From positions 114,119 to 178,118 of the forward strand of contig JACOXD010000004.1 of assembly GCA_016176465.1 (NCBI GenBank): a stretch of DNA of 64,000 nucleotides, read 5' to 3'. The notes below the pieces were generated by a model. The model saw only the letters and a list, made by a program, of their open reading frames with translations, ran no database searches and had not been told where the DNA came from. Within the stretch, counting starts at the first letter, position 1, and each line of letters opens with the position of its first letter. The stretch is from Candidatus Daviesbacteria bacterium (lineage in GTDB: Bacteria > Patescibacteriota > Microgenomatia > Daviesbacterales > UBA10151). The translations under genes and the position numbers were made by a program. Shown one piece after another: positions 6,629-51,587 of this stretch.

Positions 6629-7441
6629 CTAGAAAATTAACTTTTGCCTTAATTTAAAACTGTTTGCATGACTTAAATAACCTAAATAAGATTGAAGTGG
6701 CCGATTAAAATTCTCTGATCCTAATTCTTTTAATTTTCTAAAAATTCTTCTTTTTGTTTCTGTTCTAGGCAATCTATAGTGGAGCAAAACAATATATCCT
6801 AAAAAATCAATTCCCCAATCAAGCTTTCTTAGTACAATTTTTTTAGGATGCAACTCAAGTTTTAGATGATCTTTTAGGAATTCACTGATCTGATCTATTA
6901 ATTTAGTATGATAGACTAGTCTATTAGAACTTAATAAAATTAAAAAATCATCAGCATATCTTAAATAATACTTAACTTTTAATTTGTGCTTGATAAATTG
7001 ATCTAACTCATTCATGTAAATATTAGCAAAGATTTGGGAAGTTAAATTACCTAGAGGAATACCCTTACATCCTTTGTCATCCCCGACCCATTTCGCCGAA
7101 GCGGGAGCGAGGCGAGCCTGATCGGGGATCCATGAATATTGTCTGTTTATTATATTCCCGCTTCTGCGGGAATGACATGTACAGAAACTGCTAATTACTT
7201 GTTTTAGTAACCAGGTAATACTCTCATTTGGATCATTAACATAAAAAGAAAAATAATCTCCGTGTCTGTATGTTTTACTCTTTAACATTTCATAAAGACT
7301 AAAAAGATTGTCCTCTAAGTTTCTTTCAAAAGCTTGAATATCAGCTCGTTTCTTTTTTCCTTTTCTAAACTCATTCCATGCTTGAAACAAATTATCTATC
7401 ACACTGCCTGATTTTAGCCTTGACATACCAATTTTTACCAA
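6629..7441 (-). CDS. Reverse transcriptase (group II intron-like or retron-like, 270 aa). The fingers region is replaced by GC-rich hairpin-element sequence, so it is probably inactive.
   Basis: An RT0-like N-terminus (DNLFQAWNEFRKGKKKRADIQAFERNLEDNLFSLYEMLKSKTYRHGDYFSFYVNDP) is followed by RT motifs: GIPLGNLTSQIFANIYMNELD (motifs 3-4), YLRYADDFLIL (motif 5, YADD) and GIDFLGYIV (motif 7). The expected K.R.I...DR...HA block is absent. Two GC-rich palindromes (7075-7132, 7153-7176) occupy that position. Confidence 0.7.
   Translation of the reverse strand: MVKIGMSRLKSGSVIDNLFQAWNEFRKGKKKRADIQAFERNLEDNLFSLYEMLKSKTYRHGDYFSFYVNDPNESITWLLKQVISSFCTCHSRRSGNIINRQYSWIPDQARLAPASAKWVGDDKGCKGIPLGNLTSQIFANIYMNELDQFIKHKLKVKYYLRYADDFLILLSSNRLVYHTKLIDQISEFLKDHLKLELHPKKIVLRKLDWGIDFLGYIVLLHYRLPRTETKRRIFRKLKELGSENFNRPLQSYLGYLSHANSFKLRQKLIF
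7075..7176. repeat. Pair of GC-rich hairpins (TGTCATCCCCGAC...GATCGGGGATCC and ATTCCCGC-TTCT-GCGGGAATGACA) inside the RT ORF
   Basis: See 6195-6270. This copy is the reverse complement of the sbcD copy, with a larger loop (CGCCGAAGCGGGAGCGAGGCGAG) in the first hairpin. Confidence 0.6.
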
Positions 7442-12675: not shown

Positions 12676-13322
12676 AACCAAAATTAAATAAAGAAGAAAA
12701 GCTAACTTTAAACACATATAAAAAAATCGCTAGACAATGGGCAAGAGAACATTCAGATAATATTTGGTCTAAAGAGATCGCAATTTTTAAAAAATACTTA
12801 CCTAAGGGTAAAATTTTAGAAATAGGTTCTGGTGATGGTCGGGATGCAAAGCAGTTAATTAAAATGGGTTATCAATATATTGGTACTGATATTTCTAAAG
12901 AGCTTCTAAAAGTAGCTAAAATGAATAACCCAAAAGCTAAATTTTATAATCAAAGCGTCTATGAGCTAGATTTCCCTGATAATTATTTTGATGGTTTTTG
13001 GGCCTCAGCAGTACTACTACACATACCAAAGGTAAGAATTAACGAAGCTTTAAAAAGAATTCAATATGTAACTAAGAATAAAGGACTGGGATTTATTACT
13101 TTAAAAAGAGGCGAGGGCGAAAAAATTGTAGAAGAAGTTACAGAAACTGGAATGAAATATAAACGGCTTTTCTCATATTATTTATTGGATGAATTTAAGA
13201 AAATTCTTAAGAAGAATGGGTTTGATATCATAAAAAGTTCTCAGAAAAGGATGGGTAAAACAACCTGGCTAATATATTTTGTAAGAGCGATAAAAAGGGA
13301 TAAAAAATTGGAGCTATTTTGA
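12672..13322 (+). CDS. Class I SAM-dependent methyltransferase
   Basis: Motif I ILEIGSGDGRDAKQL, followed by an acidic post-I residue (GTDIS) and motif II/III spacing. Confidence 0.55.
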   Translation: MKPKLNKEEKLTLNTYKKIARQWAREHSDNIWSKEIAIFKKYLPKGKILEIGSGDGRDAKQLIKMGYQYIGTDISKELLKVAKMNNPKAKFYNQSVYELDFPDNYFDGFWASAVLLHIPKVRINEALKRIQYVTKNKGLGFITLKRGEGEKIVEEVTETGMKYKRLFSYYLLDEFKKILKKNGFDIIKSSQKRMGKTTWLIYFVRAIKRDKKLELF

Positions 13323-13405
13323 TACAACAAACTGCTATAGCTTATCTGTGTATCAACTCCTAATTAATTTTATAAGTTTAGACTCTTAATTGATATAATC
13401 TTTTT

Positions 13406-24602: not shown

Positions 24603-24755
24603 TATGTCTATCCAGGTTTTAAATATCTATTCATTTAAGCTAGGGGAGAATCCTAATAAAGAATCTATCTTAACTGAAATAAAACAAGCTTTATCTCAGG
24701 CTAAAGAAAGTTTTTTAAGTTTTCTAACATATGCATTCAAAATTGAACTGCGATA
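24603..24755 (+). CDS. Unannotated small ORF (50 aa) with a strong Shine-Dalgarno sequence
   Basis: AGAAAGGAGGAAATATG gives a perfect AAGGAGG with 6-nt spacing. The ORF reads MSIQVLNIYSFKLGENPNKESILTEIKQALSQAKESFLSFLTYAFKIELR*. It is convergent with, and overlaps by about 60 nt, the end of ORF 24696..25592. It was below the ORF-track length cut-off. Confidence 0.35.
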
Positions 24756-25592
24756 ATCCTTAGGTAAAAAGTATAGCGCTCCATTACTAATCCGCTCTAA
24801 TCCTTGAGGTTTACCCATATATCTTATCTGTAGCCATCTAGCCATAGTTTCTAAAGCTTTTAAAGTATTTTCTATTATGTATCTATTTTGGGAACTTTTT
24901 TTCTTTAGATCCAAAATAGGCAATACTTGATACTTACTACCACTACTTGTTATCCAGTTAGGTAAGTACTTAAAAGCCCAATTATTTTCTGCTAGAAAGC
25001 GAGAATATATATTGTTCTTTTGGTATAAAATCCGCATCTGTAAAACTTCATGTGCAACATAGATATCTTTATTTAACTGGACTAAATTATCTTCATCGAG
25101 TATTATATTTGTACATATCTTTCCAATAGCTTTTTTTCTAGTATACCCTTTTTTCCTTCGTAGTCCAAGCAAATTAAGTAAAAAGATTAGAAGCAATCTG
25201 GAAAACCAGACACTTTTACTAGACGTGATAATAAATAAATCAATGTCATCTTTCTTCCCGCTATTTCCAATTGCTAGTCCTCCAGATATTCCAATTAATT
25301 TTAAAGTGGGGATTAATTTTAGAAAATACAAAATTAAATTTATTTTTTTTAGATATTTTTTAGATATTTTTTCTTTTTGCAACCTTAATCTAACTATTTT
25401 TTTTCTTTTTTTTAAAAAAAAGTATTGTTTATCTTCATCTACTTTTCCTTTTTTCACTAGTTTTTGCAAAATCTTATCAATTTGTTTTAAAGTGCCTTTT
25501 TTCTCTATTAGCCACTTATGAATCTCCCAAGCTTTAAGGGGGTAATCAAAAATATCAGAATAGATTAAAGTCTTTAAAATTGCTTTCTCCAT
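24696..25592 (-). CDS. Hypothetical protein, possibly a nucleotidyltransferase-fold protein
   Basis: GISGGLAIGNSGKKDDIDLFIITS resembles the GS...D.D motif of the Pol-beta-like NTase fold. The rest is Lys-rich and unassigned. Confidence 0.35.
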   Translation of the reverse strand: MEKAILKTLIYSDIFDYPLKAWEIHKWLIEKKGTLKQIDKILQKLVKKGKVDEDKQYFFLKKRKKIVRLRLQKEKISKKYLKKINLILYFLKLIPTLKLIGISGGLAIGNSGKKDDIDLFIITSSKSVWFSRLLLIFLLNLLGLRRKKGYTRKKAIGKICTNIILDEDNLVQLNKDIYVAHEVLQMRILYQKNNIYSRFLAENNWAFKYLPNWITSSGSKYQVLPILDLKKKSSQNRYIIENTLKALETMARWLQIRYMGKPQGLERISNGALYFLPKDYRSSILNAYVRKLKKLSLA

Positions 25593-25704: not shown

Positions 25705-26847
25705 ATGAATGGCTTAGATAGCAAATTCAAAGAAAAAATTGTTAAAGATTTACCCTTTTCAAATCTAACAACCTTAAAAATTGGTGGACCTATCAAGTAT
25801 TTTTTTGAAGCTAAAACTGAGGATGAGTTAATAGAAGCTGTTAAATTTGCTCAAAAAAATTCTCTTCCCTATTTAGTAATTGGTGGCGGATCTAATCTTT
25901 TGGTATCTGATAAAGGATATGATGGACTAGTTATAAAAAATTCCATAACTGGAATAGCGAGGGGTGACAGCGAGGAGAGGTCTTGGCGCGTACCCGCAGC
26001 GATCAGGCAACGACCTGAGAGTGAGGATACACGACGAGAAACCGAGCTGGCAGGACCCGGAGCAATTTTGAAGGTAAAAGGCGGGACTGTTTTACAAGAT
26101 TTAGTGGATTATTCTATAAAAAATGGTTTATCTGGTTTACAAAAGATGACTGGGATCCCAGGAACTATAGCTGGGGCAGTTTATGGAAATGCAGGTGCTT
26201 ACGGCCAAACTATTTCTGACCATATAGTAAAGGTGACCATTCTAAAACCAACAACAGGGTCATCTTTCAACTTAATTGGAGGATCCAGTCAGATAGATTC
26301 CCGCTGGAGTTTACCCCGTACCTCGATACGGGACGGGAATGACAATACTGAAATTAAGACCCTAACCAAAGACGCATGTGGATTTGATTACCGCCATAGT
26401 TCCTTTAAAGAAAACAAATCCATTATTTTAGAAGTAATTTTTGAGCTGGAACAGGGAAATCCTAAAACTTTAAAGAAAGAATCTGAAGAAATTTTAGAAA
26501 AAAGATTAGTTAAATATCCAAAAGGAATTAAATGTCCTGGTAGTTTTTTTATGAATATAGTTACTGAAAATTTGCCAAAGGATGTTTTAGAAAAAATTCC
26601 CCAAAATATGATTATGTATGGAAAAATCCCTGCAGGAGCACTTTTAGAAGAAGTTGGAGCAAAAGGAGATTCAATTGATGGAATAGAAATAGCTCCTTAT
26701 CATGCTAATTTATTTGTTAATAAAGGTGGTGGTAAGGCTGAAGATTTTTACAATTTAGCTAAAAAATATTTTCAAAAAGTTAAAGAAAAATTTGGAATTA
26801 CCCTTGAACCAGAAGTCCAATTAATTAATTTACCAGCCTTAAATTAA
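25705..26847 (+). CDS. murB: UDP-N-acetylenolpyruvoylglucosamine reductase MurB, with in-frame insertions
   Basis: An FAD-binding N-terminus (LTTLKIGGPIKYFFEAKTEDELIEAVKFAQKNSLPYLVIGGGSNLL) and a MurB C-terminal domain. A GC-rich segment of about 105 nt at 25955-26063 (ARGDSEERSWRVPAAIRQRPESEDTRRETELAGPG) interrupts conserved blocks, and it is homologous to an insert in tsaD. Confidence 0.75.
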   Translation: MNGLDSKFKEKIVKDLPFSNLTTLKIGGPIKYFFEAKTEDELIEAVKFAQKNSLPYLVIGGGSNLLVSDKGYDGLVIKNSITGIARGDSEERSWRVPAAIRQRPESEDTRRETELAGPGAILKVKGGTVLQDLVDYSIKNGLSGLQKMTGIPGTIAGAVYGNAGAYGQTISDHIVKVTILKPTTGSSFNLIGGSSQIDSRWSLPRTSIRDGNDNTEIKTLTKDACGFDYRHSSFKENKSIILEVIFELEQGNPKTLKKESEEILEKRLVKYPKGIKCPGSFFMNIVTENLPKDVLEKIPQNMIMYGKIPAGALLEEVGAKGDSIDGIEIAPYHANLFVNKGGGKAEDFYNLAKKYFQKVKEKFGITLEPEVQLINLPALN

Positions 26848-26909
26848 TTCTTTATTCTGAAGCTATTTTTGATACACTAGAATGCTATAGCTTTTTAGTG
26901 CATCACTGC

Positions 26910-32774: not shown

Positions 32775-34196
32775 ATGTCTATATACACTCTGGAAAGTGA
32801 AAGAGCTTCACCCTACAACCGAGTAGGGAAAGACCCCTTAAGGTATTTTAAAGATTTAAGTTTGGCTGTTTTAGATCAGTTGATCACCCCCGAGGGAATT
32901 TTCGCCTCTACTTTTAAAGGCCATGAGGGTATCTTTTATGGTAGATTCCGAAGAGACAGTGCAAAAATTGCCAAATTCGTCTTAGCAGCCCTGCCTAATC
33001 ATTCAGCAAAACTTATTTCCAACACTGTGGATGGATTTTTATGGTTAGATCAATTTCGAGGTAAACAAAACGTTTCCAAACGAGGGGAGGAACAAGATAA
33101 AGAACCTCATGAAGTCCGCTCCCCAGGGTACTATGATCATTTAACAACTGGTAGGGTAAATCAAAGACAAAAACCTTTTTTTGTTGATAAAAGCAGCGGA
33201 TTTATGATTAACTGGGATAGTGTTGATGCTACCCCTTTAGCCGGTTTAATTAGGTGTGAATTTTTGAATTTAGGATTGGTTGATCCCAATGAACAAATCC
33301 CACTTTTAAAAAAAAGCTTAGAATGGTCCTTAAGAAATCTCCACGAAAGTAGTGGATTTCCCGGTTTTGCTTATAATCCCAGGCGTCCTTATGCTTGTTT
33401 GCCTAATCAACATTGGGCAGATAGTGAATTTACAATGTATCATCGTGATGGCCGCCCCGCTGCTTACCCTCGCAAACCTGTTGAAGTGGCAGGTTATACC
33501 TGGGCATTTTTTCTCCATGGGGCGGACCAGCTAGATCGAGAAAACCACCAACATACAGACCATGCTTTTGCAAAAAAATTAAGAGTTGTGGCAGCTGACC
33601 TTAAGAAAAGATTTAATAGTCCGCAAGGATTTTTAATGCCTGATAATAAAGTCGGAGCATACTTTGCTGAGTTTATAGATGGAAATGGGCAGCAAGGAAC
33701 TAATGTTACTTCTCAAGTAGGTTTGGGAATGAGTTTTACCTATCAAGGTGAGTCAATAGTTGAGGAGAGATATCTAGCTTCAACTGTGGCAAGAATTATG
33801 CAACCTGATCTATTTGATCCAACTGCAGGTCTGAGAATTTATAGTAATGAAGAAAGTACTACTTTTGATCCAGATGGCTATCATAGCTCATCCGATACTT
33901 ACTGGCCTTTTGAACCTCCTTTAGTAGCAATCGGTTTTGAGCAATTACAATTTGAGTCAGAGGCTAAAAATTTAATGCTTTCAATTTTTCCTCCAATTAC
34001 CCATTTTGGTTGTTGTATAGAGCAATTTCGCGTGAGAAATGGAATTTATGATCGCTTTAGGAACTCCCAAACTGGTCAAACCAGCTCTACTGATCAAGGA
34101 TGGACAGCCGCTGGTTTATATTATGCTGCTACCCATCCTTTGGTCAGAGAGTTTTTTGCTTCCTTAAGACCCCAACCTCACCTCTTTGTTGCTTAA
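32775..34196 (+). CDS. Hypothetical protein (473 aa), possibly an (alpha/alpha)6-barrel glycoside hydrolase-like enzyme, in a region of elevated GC
   Basis: A Trp/Tyr-rich composition (WADSEF, GYTWAFFLHGADQ, DTYWPFEPPL) reminiscent of six-hairpin glycosidases. No firm motif assignment. Confidence 0.3.
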   Translation: MSIYTLESERASPYNRVGKDPLRYFKDLSLAVLDQLITPEGIFASTFKGHEGIFYGRFRRDSAKIAKFVLAALPNHSAKLISNTVDGFLWLDQFRGKQNVSKRGEEQDKEPHEVRSPGYYDHLTTGRVNQRQKPFFVDKSSGFMINWDSVDATPLAGLIRCEFLNLGLVDPNEQIPLLKKSLEWSLRNLHESSGFPGFAYNPRRPYACLPNQHWADSEFTMYHRDGRPAAYPRKPVEVAGYTWAFFLHGADQLDRENHQHTDHAFAKKLRVVAADLKKRFNSPQGFLMPDNKVGAYFAEFIDGNGQQGTNVTSQVGLGMSFTYQGESIVEERYLASTVARIMQPDLFDPTAGLRIYSNEESTTFDPDGYHSSSDTYWPFEPPLVAIGFEQLQFESEAKNLMLSIFPPITHFGCCIEQFRVRNGIYDRFRNSQTGQTSSTDQGWTAAGLYYAATHPLVREFFASLRPQPHLFVA

Positions 34197-34232: not shown

Positions 34233-35396
34233 ATGAATAAATTTAAATTAATTTTAGGGATTGAGACATCTTGTGATGAAACAGCAGCTGCAATACTAAA
34301 AAAGGATGAAGGTCAGATTACTATTTTATCTAATATTGTTGCCTCTTCAGCTAAATTACAAGAAAAATATGGAGGAATTATTCCAGAACAGGCTGCTAGA
34401 GAACAGATTAAAGCTATCATTCCTGTTATTACTGAAGCGCTTAAAAAGGCACGAGTAACAAGTGATAAGTTAGATGCCATAGCAGTTACCCAAGGACCTG
34501 GTTTAATAGGTTCCTTGCTAGTAGGGGTCGAAACAGCTAAAGTTTTAAGTTTAATTTGGGAAAAACCTTTAATTCCTATAAATCATTTATTAGGACATTT
34601 TTATGCAAATTGGATAGCGACGGAGGGTGACAGGGAGGAGAGATCTCGGCGCACCCCCGCAGCGAAGTTGTTACGAGACGAGGAGGTACGACGAGAAACC
34701 GAGCTGGCAGGACCCCCAAGCGTACCAGAGTTCCCCTATCTTGGACTTTTAGTCTCTGGTGGCCATACAGATTTAGTTTTATTTAAAAATCACAATGAAT
34801 ATGACTACCTAGGTGGAACAAGGGATGATGCAGCTGGTGAATGCTTTGATAAATGCGCCAGGTTACTGGGATTTCCCTATCCTGGTGGACCAAAGATTTC
34901 TAAACTGGCAGAGAATGGAAATCCCAAGGCTTTTAAATTCCCAAGACCTATGGAAAAATCTAATGATTTTGATTTTTCTTTTTCCGGCTTAAAGACTTCT
35001 TTTGCTAATTTAGTTAATAGTTCAGAGTTTAAAGTTCAGAGTAAAAAATCAATAAGCTACAAACTCAAAGCGAAGCGTACTCATAACTTAGTCTCTGACT
35101 TAGCTGCATCTTTGGAACAAGCCATTATTGATTCACTCATTACTAAAACCATTAAAGCTGCTCAAAAATATAACATTAAACAAATCATTATTGCAGGAGG
35201 AGTTGCTGCTAATAAAAAACTAATTTCAGAGTTACAATTAGCTATTAACAATGAACTATTAACTATTAAACTCTTTGTTCCTCCACCCTATCTTTGTACA
35301 GATAACGCTGCAATGATTGCCTCCCGTGCTTTTTTTGAAAAAGAGATTAAAGATCCTATATCTTTACAAGCAGATCCAAATTTATCCTTAGCTTGA
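34233..35396 (+). CDS. tsaD: tRNA N6-adenosine threonylcarbamoyltransferase TsaD (Kae1/Gcp family), with a 35-aa in-frame insertion
   Basis: LGIETSCDETAAAI, the HLLGH metal-binding motif, and LVSGGHT. A GC-rich segment at 34612-34722 (ATEGDREERSRRTPAAKLLRDEEVRRETELAGPP) lies between the two conserved motifs and is homologous to the murB insert. Confidence 0.8.
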   Translation: MNKFKLILGIETSCDETAAAILKKDEGQITILSNIVASSAKLQEKYGGIIPEQAAREQIKAIIPVITEALKKARVTSDKLDAIAVTQGPGLIGSLLVGVETAKVLSLIWEKPLIPINHLLGHFYANWIATEGDREERSRRTPAAKLLRDEEVRRETELAGPPSVPEFPYLGLLVSGGHTDLVLFKNHNEYDYLGGTRDDAAGECFDKCARLLGFPYPGGPKISKLAENGNPKAFKFPRPMEKSNDFDFSFSGLKTSFANLVNSSEFKVQSKKSISYKLKAKRTHNLVSDLAASLEQAIIDSLITKTIKAAQKYNIKQIIIAGGVAANKKLISELQLAINNELLTIKLFVPPPYLCTDNAAMIASRAFFEKEIKDPISLQADPNLSLA

Positions 35397-36302: not shown

Positions 36303-38550
36303 AACTCAAAATACTGAGGAAAAATGGTACAAGTTTTGGGAAAATCAGGGACTTTTTAAAGCAGACCCTGATTCTTCCAAGCCTTCATATTCTATTTTAA
36401 TGCCTCCTCCTAATTTAACTGGTGAACCACACGCTGGGCACACAATCCAACATTTAATAATGGACGGCTTAGCCAGATTTAAAAGAATGCAAGGATTTGA
36501 TGTTTTATTTCAACCCGGTGTTGATCATGCAGGGATTCAATTTGAAGGAACTTTAAATAAGTTATTAGAAAAAGAAGGTTTAAGGAAGATAAGTTTGGGT
36601 AGAGAGAAATGGATGGAAAGAGCCTGGCAATTTAAAGGTGAGATTTATAAGTCTTTCCATAAAACCTGGAGAGCTATGGGGATTTCAGCTGACTGGAAAA
36701 GAGAAGTTTTTACTCTAGATCCTAAAATGCAGCGAGCTGTTTTAGAGGAATTTAAAACTTTTTGGGAACAAGATCTTTTATACAAAGGAGCATATATTGT
36801 CCAGTGGTGCCCTAAAGATGCTACTGCTATTGAGGATTTGGAAATGGAGTATGAGGAAAGGACTGAAAAGCTCTACTATGTTAAATATAAAGTAGCAGGA
36901 GACCCTAGATATCCTAACGAAGAATACATTGTGGTAGCTACTGCTCGTCCAGAAACAATTTACGCCGATGTCGCTATTGCTGTTCATCCTGAATCTAGAT
37001 ACAAAGATTATGCAGGAAGAGATGCTTATAAACCTCTCGCTCCTAGTGAAAAACTCGTAGATAGAGAGATTAAAATAATTACAGATGATAGGGTTAATAA
37101 AGAATTTGGAACAGGTGCTTTAAAAATAACTCCTGGCCATGATCCTCTAGATTATAAGATAGGCAAAGACCACAACTTATCTATCTTACATGCTGTTGAT
37201 AAAGCAGGAGGGATGACAGATTTGGCAGGCGATCTTAAAGGATTATCTGTTTCAGAAGCTCGAGAAAAAACAGCTGAGATGTTAGACAAACAAGGATCTA
37301 TTGACCACATTGAGGAATACACTCATTCAGTGCCAGTTTGTGAAAGGTGTAAATCTACTATTGAACCCTTAGTTTCCGAGGAATGGTTTGTAAAAATGAA
37401 GCCTCTTGCCCAAAAAGCCCTAAAATCCCTAAAGGATATCAACTTTTTTCCAAAGAATTTTGAAAAAGTAATTGCTGATTGGTTAGAAGAAATTCATGAC
37501 TGGTCAATTTCTAGGTCTTTGTGGTGGGGACACAGAATCCCTGTTTGGTATTGTCAAAAGTGTAATTCAAACCACGAAGTAGGAAAAGATAAAGATATGG
37601 TTATATCCTTGACTCACCCAGAGCAAAATTGCCAAACTTGTAAGCTAAATCAATGGGTCCAGGATGATCAGATTTTAGATACCTGGTTTTCATCAGGTCT
37701 TTGGCCCATGGCAACCTTAGGCTGGCCCTCCTCCGCTGAAGCTTCGGAGGGTAAACCAGACGAGTGGTTAAACATGAAGAAATATTACCCATATGATTTT
37801 GAAATATCTGCTCCAGAAATTAAATTTTTATGGATTGCTAGAATGATTATGCTGGGGGTTTGGTTTGCTCAGGATATTCCTTTTAAAAATATGTTTTTTA
37901 CAGGGACACTGCGAGACCTTCAAGGAAGAAAGTTTTCTAAGTCTTTAGGAAATGGGGTTTTTCCTTTGCCTTTAATTGATACTTGGGGAGTGGATGCTTA
38001 TAGAATGGCTATTTTTGGCTTTGCAGCTCCTGCAAGAGATGGAAGGGCAAGCAGACAAACTTTGGATGAAAGGTGTAAGAACTTTAGAAATTTTGTAACA
38101 AAGCTTAAAAACATTGCTAAGTTTATAGTTGATTTAAAACCAAAAGGAACGCAGTCATTAGATCCTTCCTCCTTAAAGGGACCCGCACTTCAGGATGACC
38201 AAACAGAGAATGTCATTCTGAGCGCCAGAGAAGAATCCAATCCAGAAGATATTGAAATTCTTGAGAAACTTAATAAAACAATTAAAAATGTAACAAAAGA
38301 ACTAAATAAGTTTAACTTTCATTTAGCCTCTGATTTTATTTATGAATTTATTTGGCATGAATTTGCAGATAAATATATTGAATCATCTAAAAATAGAAGA
38401 AAAGATGCTCAACCAGTTTTAGAATATATCTTTAAAACTTCTTTAGAGCTTCTTCATCCTTTCATGCCCTTTATTACGGAGGAAATTTGGCAAAGGCTCC
38501 CACATGCGGAAAAATCCATAATGATCGCCAAGTGGCATGAAGTTAAATAA
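36295..38550 (+). CDS. valS: Valyl-tRNA synthetase, short form (751 aa, no C-terminal coiled coil), carrying a hairpin-element insertion at 38161-38247
   Basis: The HIGH motif PPPNLTGEPHAGH, an editing domain, KMSKS KFSKSLGN, and an anticodon-binding domain. The segment SLDPSSLKGPALQDDQTENVILSAREESNPEDIE is encoded by the GC-rich bipartite element. Confidence 0.8.
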   Translation: MDKTQNTEEKWYKFWENQGLFKADPDSSKPSYSILMPPPNLTGEPHAGHTIQHLIMDGLARFKRMQGFDVLFQPGVDHAGIQFEGTLNKLLEKEGLRKISLGREKWMERAWQFKGEIYKSFHKTWRAMGISADWKREVFTLDPKMQRAVLEEFKTFWEQDLLYKGAYIVQWCPKDATAIEDLEMEYEERTEKLYYVKYKVAGDPRYPNEEYIVVATARPETIYADVAIAVHPESRYKDYAGRDAYKPLAPSEKLVDREIKIITDDRVNKEFGTGALKITPGHDPLDYKIGKDHNLSILHAVDKAGGMTDLAGDLKGLSVSEAREKTAEMLDKQGSIDHIEEYTHSVPVCERCKSTIEPLVSEEWFVKMKPLAQKALKSLKDINFFPKNFEKVIADWLEEIHDWSISRSLWWGHRIPVWYCQKCNSNHEVGKDKDMVISLTHPEQNCQTCKLNQWVQDDQILDTWFSSGLWPMATLGWPSSAEASEGKPDEWLNMKKYYPYDFEISAPEIKFLWIARMIMLGVWFAQDIPFKNMFFTGTLRDLQGRKFSKSLGNGVFPLPLIDTWGVDAYRMAIFGFAAPARDGRASRQTLDERCKNFRNFVTKLKNIAKFIVDLKPKGTQSLDPSSLKGPALQDDQTENVILSAREESNPEDIEILEKLNKTIKNVTKELNKFNFHLASDFIYEFIWHEFADKYIESSKNRRKDAQPVLEYIFKTSLELLHPFMPFITEEIWQRLPHAEKSIMIAKWHEVK
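38161..38247. repeat. Bipartite GC-rich hairpin element (Y+X modules) inserted in frame in valS
   Basis: GATCCTTCCTCCTTAAAGGGACCCGCACTTCAGGATGACCAAACA plus GAGAATGTCATTCTGAGCGCCAGAGAAGAATCC. These are homologous to 25603-25687 and inverted relative to 60745-60818. Confidence 0.6.
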
Positions 38551-39067
38551 TCTCCTTTTTATATTTAATCCTTTGCTTAAAAAGGTTTTCTCTAAACCCC
38601 CCTTCATTAATAAATTTTTTCTTTAAAGCTTCTATTTGTCTTGAGAGTAAAAAAGTTTCCATTTGGCAAAAAGTCAAAAGCATATTAGCTGCCTCTTCGG
38701 GATTATGAGGAAGATTTGGGGTGTTAGGAATATTAGGCTTAACCCAAACAGCCCTAAACTCCCTAAAAACTCTAATCCTAGGATCGCTCTTATCCCAAAT
38801 CCTTAAGTTCCTCTGTCTTAGGAAATCCTCAAAATCGGCTGTTAATTCTTTAAAAGATCCATGGGCAACACCACAAAGCTTTATATAACTTTCCAGGCTT
38901 TGCATAGTATATCCTTCAACTATGTTTTGCTTTCCAGACCTAGCTGCCTGCTCCATCTGATCAACAGTTCTGGACTTAGGGTTTATCCAGCGCGTTACAA
39001 ACTGAACAGTTAGATCATGAATAACAGTAGCTAGAATATATGTAGAGAGATTTTTGTACCCTTCCAC
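38543..39067 (-). CDS. Four-helix-bundle protein (TIGR02436-like, the family often found in 23S rRNA intervening sequences)
   Basis: MEQAARSGKQNIVEGYTMQSLESYIKLCGVAHGSFKEL matches the Q..RA..SI..NIAEG........F...A.GS..E core. Confidence 0.45.
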   Translation of the reverse strand: MEGYKNLSTYILATVIHDLTVQFVTRWINPKSRTVDQMEQAARSGKQNIVEGYTMQSLESYIKLCGVAHGSFKELTADFEDFLRQRNLRIWDKSDPRIRVFREFRAVWVKPNIPNTPNLPHNPEEAANMLLTFCQMETFLLSRQIEALKKKFINEGGFRENLFKQRIKYKKEII

Positions 39068-47665: not shown

Positions 47666-47874
47666 GAAATTATCCTCCTTAATCCTAAATAAACTCCTCT
47701 AATGCTGCCATACTCAGCAATCATTTGCTTTGTATACTGCGAACAAGTTGGGTAATTTCGACAACTTCCTCCCGGAGCAAAGTAAGATAAAACACCATGA
47801 TCAAATGAAAGGAATTTTTGGTAAAAATCAATTAGGGATAATAATATCTTGGACATTTTGTAAATCTTTAGCAA
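47656..47874 (-). CDS. yidD: Membrane protein insertion efficiency factor YidD
   Basis: CRNYPTCSQY...RCHP-like Cys motif (CRxxPTCSxY) in a 72-aa protein, in the conserved position. Confidence 0.7.
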   Translation of the reverse strand: MLKIYKMSKILLSLIDFYQKFLSFDHGVLSYFAPGGSCRNYPTCSQYTKQMIAEYGSIRGVYLGLRRIISCR

Positions 47875-48163
47875 CCAAAGTAGGATTTGCTTTTAAAATA
47901 TTGACTTTAGGCATGATAACTAAATTCAAATTTTTAATCAATAGCGGATAAGTTAGGTCAGTAGCGCTGAAAGCTAATCTTTTAGCCTTGTTTCGCTGTG
48001 TTGATTTAGGAAAGTATATTTTAGAAAGGGCAATTCCAATTAAGGGATTTTCATTTTCTCCGAGTCTAAAATTAAGTTTTAAATATTTTGTTTCTTTTTT
48101 ATCTCCTTTGGCTACCCACTTAAAACTTTTTGATAAATTTAGCCTTTTATTTTTAGGAAGCAT
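47828..48163 (-). CDS. rnpA: RNase P protein component RnpA
   Basis: A basic 111-aa protein with a KNKRLNLSKSFK RNR-like motif, located between rpmH and yidD. Confidence 0.7.
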   Translation of the reverse strand: MLPKNKRLNLSKSFKWVAKGDKKETKYLKLNFRLGENENPLIGIALSKIYFPKSTQRNKAKRLAFSATDLTYPLLIKNLNLVIMPKVNILKANPTLVAKDLQNVQDIIIPN

Positions 48164-48173
48164 AGGAAAAAGT

Positions 48174-48314
48174 TTAGATTGTTAAACGATGAGCACCTTT
48201 TAACCGTCTTCGTTTCAAAATTAACTGTCCGGTTTTAGAAGACATTCGAGCCCTAAATCCATGTTTTTTTTGGCGCTTAGCTTTTTTAGGCTGGTAGGTA
48301 CGTTTAGTAGACAT
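48174..48314 (-). CDS. rpmH: Ribosomal protein L34
   Basis: [46 protein letters not shown] is near-consensus L34. The longer track ORF (to 48401) is a spurious 5' extension through oriC sequence. Confidence 0.85.
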
Positions 48315-48401
48315 GGGGACAAGTATACTATACTTACCCGGGATACGAAATATGTAATATGAAATATGTTTACTTATTGTGTCTCGTATTCCGTATCTCA
48401 T

Positions 48402-48488
48402 ATCACATATCCCAAAAATATATTTGATCCATTAATTAATAGTTTCTCTCTCTTTACCTGTTGATAACTTATCCACTAATATAGCTTC
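48402..48488. promoter_or_regulatory. rpmH-dnaA intergenic region with DnaA-box-like 9-mers (oriC part 1 / dnaA promoter)
   Basis: TTATCCACT at about 48466-48474, and TTGATAAC (the complement, TTATCAACA-like) at about 48457-48465. An adjacent AT-rich repeat tract (ATACGAAATATG / ATATGAAATATG) lies at 48330-48400. Confidence 0.45.
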
Positions 48489-49820
48489 ATGGACGAAAAG
48501 GAGAGAAAAAAGATCTGGACGAAGATAACTGATGTTATTAAAGAAGAAATCTCATCAGCCAATTTTAGAACCTGGTTTTCTCAAACAGTGCTGGGAGAAA
48601 TAAGTAATGAAAAGATGGTGATATTTGTCACTTCTGCATTCATTAAAAACCAGCTCTTATCACGCTATCAATCTTTACTTGAAGAGGCTATTGAAAAAAC
48701 TTTGGGCAAAAAAATGGTGGTTGAATGTAAAATAAACACCACAATCAACTCAATTTCGGAAGAAAGTTTTGAGCTGGAAACTCCTCCACGACTACAATCT
48801 TTTGTAGGCCTTAACCCAAGATATACTTTAGCCAATTTTGTGGTTGGATTAACCAATAACTTAGCTTATGCAGCGGCTCAAGCCGTTGTCCAAAACCCAG
48901 GCATCTCTTATAACCCTTTATTTATTTACGGTCCATCAGGGGTAGGGAAGACTCACCTGATGCAAGCTATTGGTAATGCCATTTTTGGCAAAAATTCCTA
49001 CTCAAAAATAGTTTATGCTCCCTCAGAACGCTTTATGGTTGATTTTGTGGATTCAATTCAAAATAAAAAAACAGGAGATTTCCGCTCAAAATACCGATCC
49101 TCCAATTTATTATTAATAGATGATATCCAGTTCATAGCTGGAAAAGATTCCACACAGGAGGAGTTTTTCCATACTTTTAATGAATTACACTCCAAAAATT
49201 GCCAGATTGTTTTGACTTCAGATAGACCTCCTAATGAAATGGTAAAATTAGAATCCAGGTTACTCTCCAGATTCCAAGGGGGATTAATGGTGGACATTCA
49301 ATTACCTGACTTTGATACCCGGATGGCAATATTAAAAACTAAATTAAAAGAGCGAGAAGAAACCCTTCCTGAGGAATATCTTAAGCTAATTGCTGAAAAT
49401 ATAGAATCCAACACAAGAGAGCTTGAAGGGAAGCTTATTCAAATACTGCAAATGAGCAAACTAAGCAACCAACCCCTAAATGAAGACTCGGTTAGGAAGT
49501 TTTTGGGATCTAGACATAAACAATTATCAGCTAATATAGATCATAAAAAAGTTCTAACAACTTTAAATAACTATTTTAATATAAAAACAGCGGATTTAAC
49601 TGGTCCTAGACGGCAAAAAGAATTAGTTTTACCCAGGCATTTGGCAATGTATATTCTTTACGAAGAGTGCAAAATTCCCATGGAAAAGATTGGTCAAATT
49701 TTAGGAGGTAGGGATCACACTACTATTTTGCATGGGATTGAAAAAATAAGGGGTAATTTAGGAAGGGACCGGGAAGTACAAAGACTACTGATTGAAATAA
49801 AACAACAGCTTCTAAATTAA
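48489..49820 (+). CDS. dnaA: Chromosomal replication initiator DnaA
   Basis: AAA+ motifs: Walker A GPSGVGKTHL, Walker B LLLIDDIQF, sensor and arginine-finger regions. The C-terminal DNA-binding domain (LTGPRRQKELVLPRHLAMYIL..., IGQILGGRDHTTILHGIEKI). Confidence 0.9.
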   Translation: MDEKERKKIWTKITDVIKEEISSANFRTWFSQTVLGEISNEKMVIFVTSAFIKNQLLSRYQSLLEEAIEKTLGKKMVVECKINTTINSISEESFELETPPRLQSFVGLNPRYTLANFVVGLTNNLAYAAAQAVVQNPGISYNPLFIYGPSGVGKTHLMQAIGNAIFGKNSYSKIVYAPSERFMVDFVDSIQNKKTGDFRSKYRSSNLLLIDDIQFIAGKDSTQEEFFHTFNELHSKNCQIVLTSDRPPNEMVKLESRLLSRFQGGLMVDIQLPDFDTRMAILKTKLKEREETLPEEYLKLIAENIESNTRELEGKLIQILQMSKLSNQPLNEDSVRKFLGSRHKQLSANIDHKKVLTTLNNYFNIKTADLTGPRRQKELVLPRHLAMYILYEECKIPMEKIGQILGGRDHTTILHGIEKIRGNLGRDREVQRLLIEIKQQLLN

Positions 49821-50002
49821 ATATCCACATTTCCCCTTTAGTTATCCACATACTTTTCCACAATTTTAAAGTATTTTTCAACACGAAAAAAGTTCGAAAT
49901 CTATTCTTAAATTGCTTGGTTTTTAAACTTATGCACATGCTCTATAATAGCTATTACTAATTTGAATATATTATATTTATCTAGAAATAAGTGGACAACT
50001 AA
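49821..50002. promoter_or_regulatory. oriC DnaA-box cluster with an AT-rich unwinding region, between dnaA and dnaN
   Basis: ATATCCACA (49821-49829), TTATCCACA (49842-49850), TTTTCCACA (about 49854-49862), TTATGCACA (about 49928-49936), and an inverted TTGTCCACT (about 49989-49998). These are interspersed with AT tracts (TTTTAAAGTATTTTT, TATAATAGCTATTACTAATTTGAATATATTATATTTAT). Confidence 0.65.
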
Positions 50003-50461
50003 ATGGAAATAAATTGGGTTGTTATTTTATTTATTGTACTTGGGTTGATAATTGCTTATTTAATCGGCAGACTGCAAGCAAAACCAAAATCAAGCGATAT
50101 TCCACAAGATTTCATAGATTTGTATAAACAAGTTGAAGGACTACCTTTAAGAGTTTTACAAACCATTCAAGGCTCAATTAATCCCCAGAAAGGAAAAATG
50201 GCAGAGCTTTTAACCTATGCAGAGCTTAGATATGATTATGATCGGATCATTCCGCTAGGTTGGCCAATTGATTTTATTGGAATTAAAAATAATGAGCGGA
50301 TTGATTTTATAGAAGTTAAATCAGGAAACTTTGCACTCTTGACAGATGAGGAAAAACACATTAAAAACCTTATAGTTAAAGGATCTGTTCATTTTAGATT
50401 AATTAAAGTAACAGAAGAAGAAATTTCTAAATTTATTTCTGCCCAAAAGGAAGGAAATTGA
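50003..50461 (+). CDS. Membrane-anchored PD-(D/E)xK nuclease-fold protein (YraN/Hjc-like), inserted between dnaA and dnaN
   Basis: An N-terminal TM helix (WVVILFIVLGLIIAYLIG). The pattern GKMAELLTYAELRYDYDRIIPLGWPIDFIGIKNNERIDFIEVKSG matches the E...(x)GEiDlia....e..fVEVK.R arrangement of YraN (UPF0102) and Hjc nucleases. Confidence 0.45.
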   Translation: MEINWVVILFIVLGLIIAYLIGRLQAKPKSSDIPQDFIDLYKQVEGLPLRVLQTIQGSINPQKGKMAELLTYAELRYDYDRIIPLGWPIDFIGIKNNERIDFIEVKSGNFALLTDEEKHIKNLIVKGSVHFRLIKVTEEEISKFISAQKEGN

Positions 50462-50477
50462 CAGTAATCAATTAACA

Positions 50478-51587
50478 ATGAAGATTACAATACTCCAGCA
50501 GGATTTGGTTGGTCCTCTCCAGGCAGTTTCCCGCTCAACCGGAAAGAGTAATTTACCAGTGCTTGCTAATATCTTAATCCAAACAGAAGCAGGTAAACTT
50601 AAACTCTCTGCCACTAACTTAGAGATAGGGGTTATAAAAAAAGTTAATGCAAAGGTGGAAGAAGATGGAGAAATCACTGTCCCATCAAGAACCTTTCTTG
50701 ATGTTATAACCTCACTAACAGGTGAAAAAATAACTTTAGAGGGCTCACTTGACCAATTAAAAATTTCTACCAGTAGTTTTAAAGCATCCATTAATGGGAT
50801 CCCAGCTAATGAATTTCCCTCAATTCCTTTAGCATCAGAGCAATCAGTTGTTTTAGATGCTTTTATACTAAAGCAGTCTTTGCCTGAGATTACTTTTGCA
50901 GCAGCTGTTGATGAGGGAAGGCCTATTTTAACTGGAATTTTAACTGAAATAAAAAAGGATTCCCTAGAACTTGTTGCAACAGATGGTTTTAGATTGGCTC
51001 ATAAGAAGGTTAAGATATTAGGAGAAGGGGAGTTTAAAGCTTTAATTCCCAGAAAGACTTTTGAAGAAATTGTTAGGTTAATTGATGAAGATTTAGTAAA
51101 CAGTAAAGAAGAAAAAGTGGAAATGGCAACAGCCGAAGGTCAAAACCAGATTATTTTTAAAATTGGCCAAACTGAACTTTCCTCTCGCTTAATTGAAGGA
51201 AATTTCCCATCCTGGGATAAAATAATCCCAAAAGAGTTTGAAAACAGAACTATTATTGAAAAGGGGGAACTTGCCAAAGCTGTCAAGCTGGCCTCAGTCT
51301 TTGCAAAAGACGTCGCTAATATTATAAAGATCCAAACCAGTGAAAATAAAATTATAGTCTCATCAGAGACAAAGGAGTTAGGTTCACAGGAAAGTGAAGT
51401 TGAATGCCTTGTTGAGGGCTCCCCTTTAATTATTGCTTTTAATGGTCGCTTTTTATCAGACGTACTAGCAGCTTGTTCCACTTCGCAAATTGCCATAGAA
51501 TTTTCCGGATCTTTATCAGCTGCGCTGCTTAAGCCAGTTGGGGAAGAGGGGTTAGAATATATTATTATGCCTGTTCGCTTAACTTAG
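50478..51587 (+). CDS. dnaN: DNA polymerase III beta sliding clamp DnaN
   Basis: MKITILQQDLVGPLQAVSRSTGKSNLPVLANILIQTEAGKLKLSATNLEIGV... with three-domain clamp architecture, in the conserved position after dnaA. Confidence 0.85.
   Translation: MKITILQQDLVGPLQAVSRSTGKSNLPVLANILIQTEAGKLKLSATNLEIGVIKKVNAKVEEDGEITVPSRTFLDVITSLTGEKITLEGSLDQLKISTSSFKASINGIPANEFPSIPLASEQSVVLDAFILKQSLPEITFAAAVDEGRPILTGILTEIKKDSLELVATDGFRLAHKKVKILGEGEFKALIPRKTFEEIVRLIDEDLVNSKEEKVEMATAEGQNQIIFKIGQTELSSRLIEGNFPSWDKIIPKEFENRTIIEKGELAKAVKLASVFAKDVANIIKIQTSENKIIVSSETKELGSQESEVECLVEGSPLIIAFNGRFLSDVLAACSTSQIAIEFSGSLSAALLKPVGEEGLEYIIMPVRLT

Follow-up and report, generated by a model that had tools for sequence, protein, structure and literature searches.

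The murB and tsaD genes of this Candidatus Daviesbacteria contig each carry a copy of the same GC-rich hairpin, inserted in frame. We suggest that these copies belong to a new family of short (about 95-120 nt), GC-rich, translated and non-autonomous hairpin repeats that inhabits Candidatus Daviesbacteria and related Microgenomates and resembles the Rickettsia palindromic elements. We put the probability of this reading at about 0.65. Copies of the repeat recur in other genes and genomes, they share a covarying hairpin, they are read through in frame, and orthologues exist that have no insert; how the family spread is what we infer from these observations.

Two copies of the element in the window

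The window, i.e., the whole 64 kb stretch of DNA analysed here, contains one copy in murB and one in tsaD. The first-pass annotation had proposed that positions 25955-26063 and 34612-34722 are homologous at about 75% nucleotide identity. Global alignment agrees with this, since 90 of 120 columns are identical. A 27-mer (CGACGAGAAACCGAGCTGGCAGGACCC) is identical in both copies and is found nowhere else in the window (0 of 100 shuffles matched). The segments are also as GC-rich as described, with a GC content of 0.633 in murB and 0.640 in tsaD against 0.346 for the window, while the rest of each gene is at 0.325 and 0.340, respectively. The further claim, that both are read in the same frame as related peptides, needs one refinement. 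Both segments lie in long ORFs and the quoted peptides are exact, but the kinship is at the level of nucleotides and structure, not of the peptide. A covariance model of the family (R1), run with filters off, finds these two copies alone in the 64 kb window.

The window MurB is 100% identical to P0130 (NCBI: UDP-N-acetylmuramate dehydrogenase [Candidatus Daviesbacteria bacterium]) and the window TsaD is 100% identical to P0007 (NCBI MBI2011447.1). In each protein the Pfam match is split in two by the insert. The features are as follows.

25705-26847, + strand: murB ORF, host of copy 1; 380 aa; Pfam FAD_binding_4 (two stretches) and MurB_C
25951-26069, + strand: copy 1, whole hairpin; outer stem GGAAUAGC/GCAAUUUU; R1 score 109.8 bits, E 1e-26
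25957-26064, + strand: copy 1, inserted codons; peptide ARGD...AGPGA, with ETELAGPGAILK within the insert
25962-26058, + strand: copy 1, core, GGGUGAC through CAGGACCC
25962-25968, 25994-25999, 26023-26027 and 26050-26058, + strand: copy 1, motifs GGGTGAC, CCGCAG, GAGGA and GCAGGACCC, in this order
34233-35396, + strand: tsaD ORF, host of copy 2; 387 aa; Pfam TsaD in two stretches
34612-34726, + strand: copy 2, whole hairpin; weak outer stem GGAUAGC/GCGUACC; R1 score 101 bits
about 34617-34721, + strand: copy 2, inserted codons; peptide ATEGD...AGPPS, with ETELAGPPSVPEFPYLGLLVSGGHTDLVLFK within the insert
34625-34715, + strand: copy 2, core
34625-34631, 34656-34661, 34679-34683 and 34707-34715, + strand: copy 2, motifs GGGTGAC, CCGCAG, GAGGA and GCAGGACCC, in this order

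Elsewhere in the window, rnpA (-), dnaA (+) and dnaN (+) lie together at 47828-51587, and the cumulative GC skew has its minimum at about 46-48 kb; this region is likely the replication origin. Both copies, the only two of the family that can be placed relative to an origin, lie to the left of the dnaA region with the GGGUGAC strand on +. Between a LigT-like gene and tsaD there is a 473-residue ORF without a Pfam match (32775-34196). Since the LigT-like gene and tsaD are adjacent in L142, L143, L144 and L146, this ORF is a local gain in the window lineage. An ORF at 38543-39067 (-) matches the 23S rRNA intervening-sequence protein family, but below threshold (29.6 bits, cut-off 33.8).

The segments are insertions into conserved enzymes

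Ortholog alignment bears out the proposal that the segments are lineage-specific insertions, because they are extra with respect to both the solved MurB and TsaD structures and a syntenic relative. Residues 80-124 of MurB (45 residues) face residues 105-119 (15 residues) of 3tx1, and residues 127-163 of TsaD (37 residues) face residues 120-124 (5 residues) of Salmonella Gcp. The inserts were rightly placed between conserved motifs of both enzymes, that in TsaD coming directly after the HxxxH motif. On the syntenic Daviesbacteria contig L144 (GCA_016195715.1), a 311-residue MurB without insert reads GIEQNDQTLVVKSG, where the window MurB reads GI[ARGD...AGPGA]ILKVKGG. Among the closest 120 homologues of each protein, the loop is short in 67 for MurB and in about 25 for TsaD. 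Mapping onto structure, which had been suggested as a check, gives two AlphaFold models, based on the homologue alignments, with mean pLDDT of 88.1 and 86.7, in which the inserts (50-62) are modelled as low-confidence excursions from well-folded cores (>90).

A dispersed family in Daviesbacteria and related Microgenomates

The search for further copies that the annotation had called for recovered about 20 at the DNA level, which score 55-119 bits with R1, plus others known from proteins alone. The sources are mostly Candidatus Daviesbacteria or Microgenomates sequences. Model R1 was built from 12 copies, and extra copies were found with it in loci reached through proteins. A scan of species-representative genomes with an exact 18-mer gave 17 matches, which equals the chance expectation, and L014 and L015 alone are real. 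L014 is a Daviesbacteria genome with the copy in a spacer; L015 is a low-GC metagenome-assembled genome labelled Gammaproteobacteria, a label that we doubt. In metagenomes, a two-block pattern detected at least nine real copies on JGI/ENA contigs amid mostly high-GC noise, and two scans of viral contigs gave no real copy. A five-frame peptide profile yielded only 6 matches because no more than 8000 candidates were scored. An exhaustive peptide search yielded 3 significant matches, 2 of them real. A second, partial copy lies at L147:1-71, in the gene adjoining murB. This gene is a homologue of the window ORF 24696-25592, which has no element itself, and the element is also present there in P0001 and P0005. 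Copy density is low, i.e., two per 64 kb window.

At least 12 different genes contain copies, which occur in both orientations and four reading frames (0, 2, a and c); other copies are in spacers. Fifteen of 20 DNA copies are inside an ORF of at least 600 nt. Five copies are in spacers, and one of these provides the last codons and the stop codon of prfA. The host genes are as follows.

Sense, frame 0 (GDSEE...ELAGP): MurB, TsaD, a giant surface protein, a UvrD/PcrA-like helicase, ribosomal protein L10, a second TsaD loop and a 97-residue protein
Sense, frame 2 (GVTARR...PSWQDP): a PBP1A-like protein, on two contigs
Antisense: ribosomal proteins L4 and L29, a WecB/TagA glycosyltransferase and homologues of window ORF 24696-25592
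Further host gene: a protein of ~300 aa without a Pfam match
Other element frame peptides: GPASSVSRR..SSLSPL and GVLPARFP

A conserved, strand-specific hairpin

Every copy folds as one long imperfect hairpin. In a 16-copy alignment, which was fitted to the model and so favours structure, standard pairs fill 89.8% of cells, compared with 25-42% when the partners are slid by 1-3 columns; RNAalifold on an independent MAFFT alignment gives the same helices. Changes on both sides are seen in 15 of 27 pairs, and 0 of 500 shuffles reach the observed values. The RNA fold z-scores of the GGGUGAC strand are mostly -2 to -4. The two strands are asymmetric: the core helices contain 17 G-U pairs as opposed to 2 A-C mismatches, and the fold of the GGGUGAC strand is more stable than that of the complementary strand by 5.4 kcal/mol (p = 0.008). 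When DNA parameters are used, shuffles fold almost as well.

Four motifs, GGGUGAC, CCGCA(G), GAGGA and CAGGACCC, are invariant in eight copies that were found without a DNA pattern; the apparent invariance of GACAGNGAGGAG and CCGAGCUGGC in the first set was due to the search pattern. There are two internal loops, both asymmetric and conserved, in which GGGUGAC is opposite GCAGGACCC and CCGCAG is opposite GAGGA. In L059b, Watson-Crick pairs (CAGUUCCG/CGGAACUG) take the place of the tandem G.A pairs. The flanks beyond the core pair better with their own partner than with the flanks of other copies (p about 0.0015). The element ends, GGGGUGAC... and ...GCAGGACCCC, are complementary only at GGGGU/ACCCC and CAG/CUG (end sequences GCGAGGGGUGAC...GCAGGACCCCGAGC).

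Likenesses to known RNAs were considered and rejected. A kink-turn in the basal loop, proposed by eye, would have G.G at position 2b.2n, and the SRP models give no match to the 3' end, AGCUGGCAGG(G/A)CCCC, which recalls E. coli 4.5S RNA. Rfam gives no gathering-score match in the window, and the matches of the two copies at E up to 10 are at chance level only.

In-frame read-through

Over all copies, 72 of 120 element frames (60%) are open. The host frame is open at about 12 of 12 independent genic loci, for which the chance is 0.6^12, or about 0.002. The element frame that contains TGA is never used by any host gene. In L124, the frame of the tsaD copy shifts internally by one base and is restored at the 3' border (...GQLLQPRRYDGIPSWQDPELNIPTFP). 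Thus, read-through appears to be under selection for an open frame, and the element is predicted from these frames to be transcribed and translated as an extra ~30-35 residues. The same evidence speaks against removal at the RNA level and against selection for the peptide, whose conservation is broken by changes of frame within the element in related tsaD copies. Roughly 8 genic copies lie in the sense orientation of the host mRNA and 4 in the antisense orientation; an orientation bias, at about 11 sense versus 6 antisense, is not significant.

Conservation in place and probable spread

A private signature (loop AGUUGUUAC) is common to the tsaD copies of the window, L124, L142 and L143 and favours descent over re-insertion. 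The cores of the window, L124 and L142 are 88-91% identical, and L143 is 72-78% identical to those three. The tsaD genes have ~70% protein identity, with four-fold sites at saturation (identity 0.42). The element is 88% identical in the tsaD pair against 42% at four-fold sites, and in the PBP pair the values are 0.89 and 0.39; about 31 of ~90 element positions were forced by the search patterns, and the remainder is still ~82% identical. The gene sequence beside the element has no raised identity. Within the tsaD lineage the outer stems are wholly different and yet perfectly complementary over 9-11 bp (GGAUAUUUAG/CUAAAUAUCC, AAUGUAAGC/GCUUACAUU and GGAUUGUGAAC/GUUCACAAUCC), and L143 has CGC/GCG in place of the CAG/CUG of the others.

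The window copies are only 75-80% identical to each other, so there is no homogenisation within the genome. Copies across genes and samples (murB of L147 and L148, PBP of L133, the L092 spacer and the giant protein of L052) are 84-92% identical, and such identity between different genes would fit recent spread. Core conservation combined with covarying stems is the pattern expected of a functional structured nucleic acid. Arm-to-arm correction could keep the stems paired without selection, but not the unpaired motifs. In-place conservation and recent spread probably both operate.

Weighing the explanations

The GC content, strongly unlike that of the host, might suggest that foreign GC-rich DNA was stitched into the contig during assembly or binning. 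This is the least probable of the explanations, and we regard it as practically negligible. Both copies are in frame within intact genes, and the identical TsaD and MurB are recorded at NCBI on a 191 kb contig, with TsaD also in Logan; moreover, copies at the same and other sites are present in independent JGI, ENA, Logan and NCBI assemblies. Alternatively, the proteins may not be truly interrupted, if the element were removed from the RNA or skipped by the ribosome in the manner of a mini-intron or of the yeast mitochondrial bypass. A GC-rich structured insert in essential genes of an AT-rich genome invites this idea, since such inserts are alike to mitochondrial GC clusters and bypass elements. 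An open frame would be needless if the element were removed, and every genic copy, antisense copies included, keeps the host frame open and in register. Given also the compensated frameshift of L124, the unused TGA frame and the absence of a match to any ribozyme or intron family, removal or skipping is very unlikely. Slightly less credible still is a protein module selected for its peptide, with the nucleotide similarity as a by-product. The hydrophilic frame-0 peptide does recur in MurB, TsaD, L10 and the UvrD-like protein. However, the same DNA is read in at least four frames on two strands, the spacer copies contain stop codons, the related tsaD copies switch frame midway while their nucleotides are conserved, and the inserts are modelled with low confidence.

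More serious is the alternative in which the host maintains the hairpin as a functional module, either a structured RNA or single-stranded DNA, with its loops under purifying selection and translation merely tolerated. The hairpin could be the docking site of a putative protein or factor, or a mobile hairpin domesticated for a cellular role. We consider this possible, with well under an even chance. It would account for the identity of the tsaD and PBP elements at 88-89% against 39-42% at four-fold sites (~82% without the pattern-forced positions), for a tsaD core conserved while its outer stems turned over fully and stayed paired, for the four invariant motifs in the eight pattern-free copies, and for a strand-specific structure (17 G-U against 2 A-C; 5.4 kcal/mol, p = 0.008) whose DNA fold is near shuffles. 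Against it, the genic copies occur in both orientations, roughly 8 sense and 4 antisense, so that one and the same role at the mRNA level cannot apply to all. No gene is a constant neighbour, no Rfam family matches, many orthologues are without the element, and L146 has apparently lost all but the basal stem. In addition, recent spread would also explain why non-orthologous copies are so similar, and template switching between the arms can keep the stems paired without selection.

We favour a dispersed repeat. According to this proposal, an element without coding capacity of its own landed in many unrelated places and, inside genes, would survive only where the frame stays open and the surface loop is permissive. 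It may have spread by some form of non-autonomous transposition, possibly via a single-stranded hairpin intermediate. Selection on the conserved loops could keep its hairpin in place, as could template switching in quasi-palindromes, by which one arm is corrected against the other; the two may also act together. Some observations sit less easily with a repeat. Identity of 88-91% where four-fold sites are saturated, together with turned-over stems that remain complementary, would not be expected for passive junk. The same two protein loops are hit again and again. A target-site duplication could not be defined, the terminal inverted repeat is weak, no transposase or partner gene is seen among the ten window ORFs put through Pfam, and the copy density is low.

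Comparison with known mobile elements

The likeness to the Rickettsia palindromic elements that the first-pass annotation had pointed out stands up by description, in that a dispersed hairpin repeat is found in many genes and spacers. The Rickettsia palindromic elements (RPE-1 to RPE-10) are interspersed hairpin repeats of ~100-150 bp that are found in spacers and, in frame, in housekeeping genes (PMC10969869, PMC1779305). Their added peptide has been judged compatible with the protein fold, and some copies are older than lineage splits (PMC10969869, PMC1779305). The present element shares the size (here ~95-120 nt), the hairpin and the presence in both genic and spacer loci (here about 12 and 5). 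It also shares in-frame fusion, here predicted from open ORFs and from cores that are intact in the AlphaFold models, and some copies that predate lineage splits. Unlike the Rickettsia elements, it is strongly GC-rich in an AT-rich genome, is read in four frames on both strands, hits the same loops repeatedly, shares these loops with other hairpin families, and is conserved in place well beyond synonymous sites. Its host belongs to a different phylum (Daviesbacteria, Candidate Phyla Radiation), and kinship in sequence would not be expected. Thus, it is an analogue of the Rickettsia palindromic elements and not a member, since Candidatus Daviesbacteria is outside Rickettsiales.

MITEs are small multi-copy elements that form hairpins, do not code for proteins and are occasionally fused in frame to host ORFs (PMC10969869). 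The present element has all of these traits, but its ends show no clear terminal inverted repeat apart from GGGGU...ACCCC. The flanks of the copies contain no consistent direct repeat, and a comparison of filled and empty murB sites shows no target-site duplication. CGAG is constant on both sides and is therefore part of the element, not a duplication. No related autonomous insertion sequence was seen in about 190 kb of Daviesbacteria-type loci, and no transposase is among the ten window ORFs put through Pfam.

REPs and REPINs, which RAYT transposases mobilise, are imperfect palindromes with conserved bulges and fold on a single strand; as doublets they form hairpins of ~100 nt. REPs are almost wholly extragenic, with a 5' GTAG beside the palindrome, and are accompanied by a RAYT gene. 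The element described here is likewise an imperfect palindrome folding on one strand with conserved bulges, but its copies are mostly inside genes (15 of 20). The GC clusters and bypass elements of yeast mitochondria are GC-rich, structured, mobile inserts that interrupt coding sequences in an AT-rich genome. Ribosomes skip the bypass elements, for which no open frame is required, whereas the frame of the present element is always open, which argues for read-through.

The statement that the segments are too short for inteins or introns also agrees with our results, as the insert is ~35 codons, matches no intron family and always preserves the frame. Several other systems were rejected. The core sites are wrongly arranged for an integron attC site, and the 5' flank is not constant as for an IS200/IS605-type target. 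Differences between copies are not adenine-specific, which speaks against a diversity-generating retroelement. The GGGGU ends are reminiscent of Tn3-family inverted repeats; no 5-bp duplication was seen. There is no prior description of the family in Rfam or in the searchable open-access full-text literature.

Loops used by several hairpin families

Among 120 homologues, the TsaD loop between ANWI and PxFP is 4 to 46 residues long. The element family occurs there, with P0019 as a clear-cut example, and so does a diverged form whose termini are the same (ARGDGERGAPLSAR...RQDPE) and which R1 detects in L144 and L145. The loop also holds unrelated hairpin peptides (VIPAKAGI... and ...ATSVASLLPRND...). 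The TsaD loop of L146 (L146:8506-9744) contains another hairpin, GTCATTCCCGCGAAAGCGGGAATC ... GGATCCCCGATTAGATCGGGGATGAC, which encloses a 24-nt unit repeated three times in tandem (AYNKVSSS x3).

At MurB site 1, the element family is found in at least six other homologues. The closest MurB homologue, P0131 of L146 (75% identical over ungapped columns), reads GAGGGTCGGACCC there. This site (MurB at L146:1087-2103) is an apparent remnant with the basal stem only, although GGGT followed by GGACCC within 30 bases is expected 0.69 times per 64 kb; it suggests that the interior was lost by deletion. The loop occupancy across homologues indicates that these loops were gained, lost and re-used repeatedly. 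Either targeting or mere tolerance of the loop to insertion could lie behind this repeated use.

The window murB also has a second, unrelated hairpin insert at 26297-26340 (ATTCCCGCTGGAGTTTACCCCGTACCTCGATACGGGACGGGAAT, peptide IDSRWSLPRTSIRDGNDN, pLDDT 37-59). It is missing from the L144 MurB and common to P0131, and other hairpin families likewise recur at its site, another hot spot. At 7142-7185, inside ORF 6629-7441 (-), there is a hairpin of the same type (ATTCCCGC/GCGGGAATGAC). This ORF encodes 270 residues, is reverse-transcriptase-like (RVT_1, E 1.9e-12) and lies 19 kb from the element, to which no link was found. Similar intergenic palindromes, TTGATACA..GCTATAGC..TGTATCAA, are present at 13319-13356 and 26870-26905, the latter immediately past the stop codon of murB; both may act as terminators or operators.

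Implications

Coding palindromic repeats have been treated as a peculiarity of Rickettsia. Here they are found in a lineage of the Candidate Phyla Radiation with tiny genomes, and several hairpin families share the same permissive loops in its essential enzymes. This bears on how proteins gain loops and on the odd inserts of Candidate Phyla Radiation proteins. Because such inserts inflate alignments and create spurious 'conserved' peptides, they matter for annotation and phylogenomics. If the conservation in place reflects function, the element would be a new structured nucleic-acid motif in an unculturable group.
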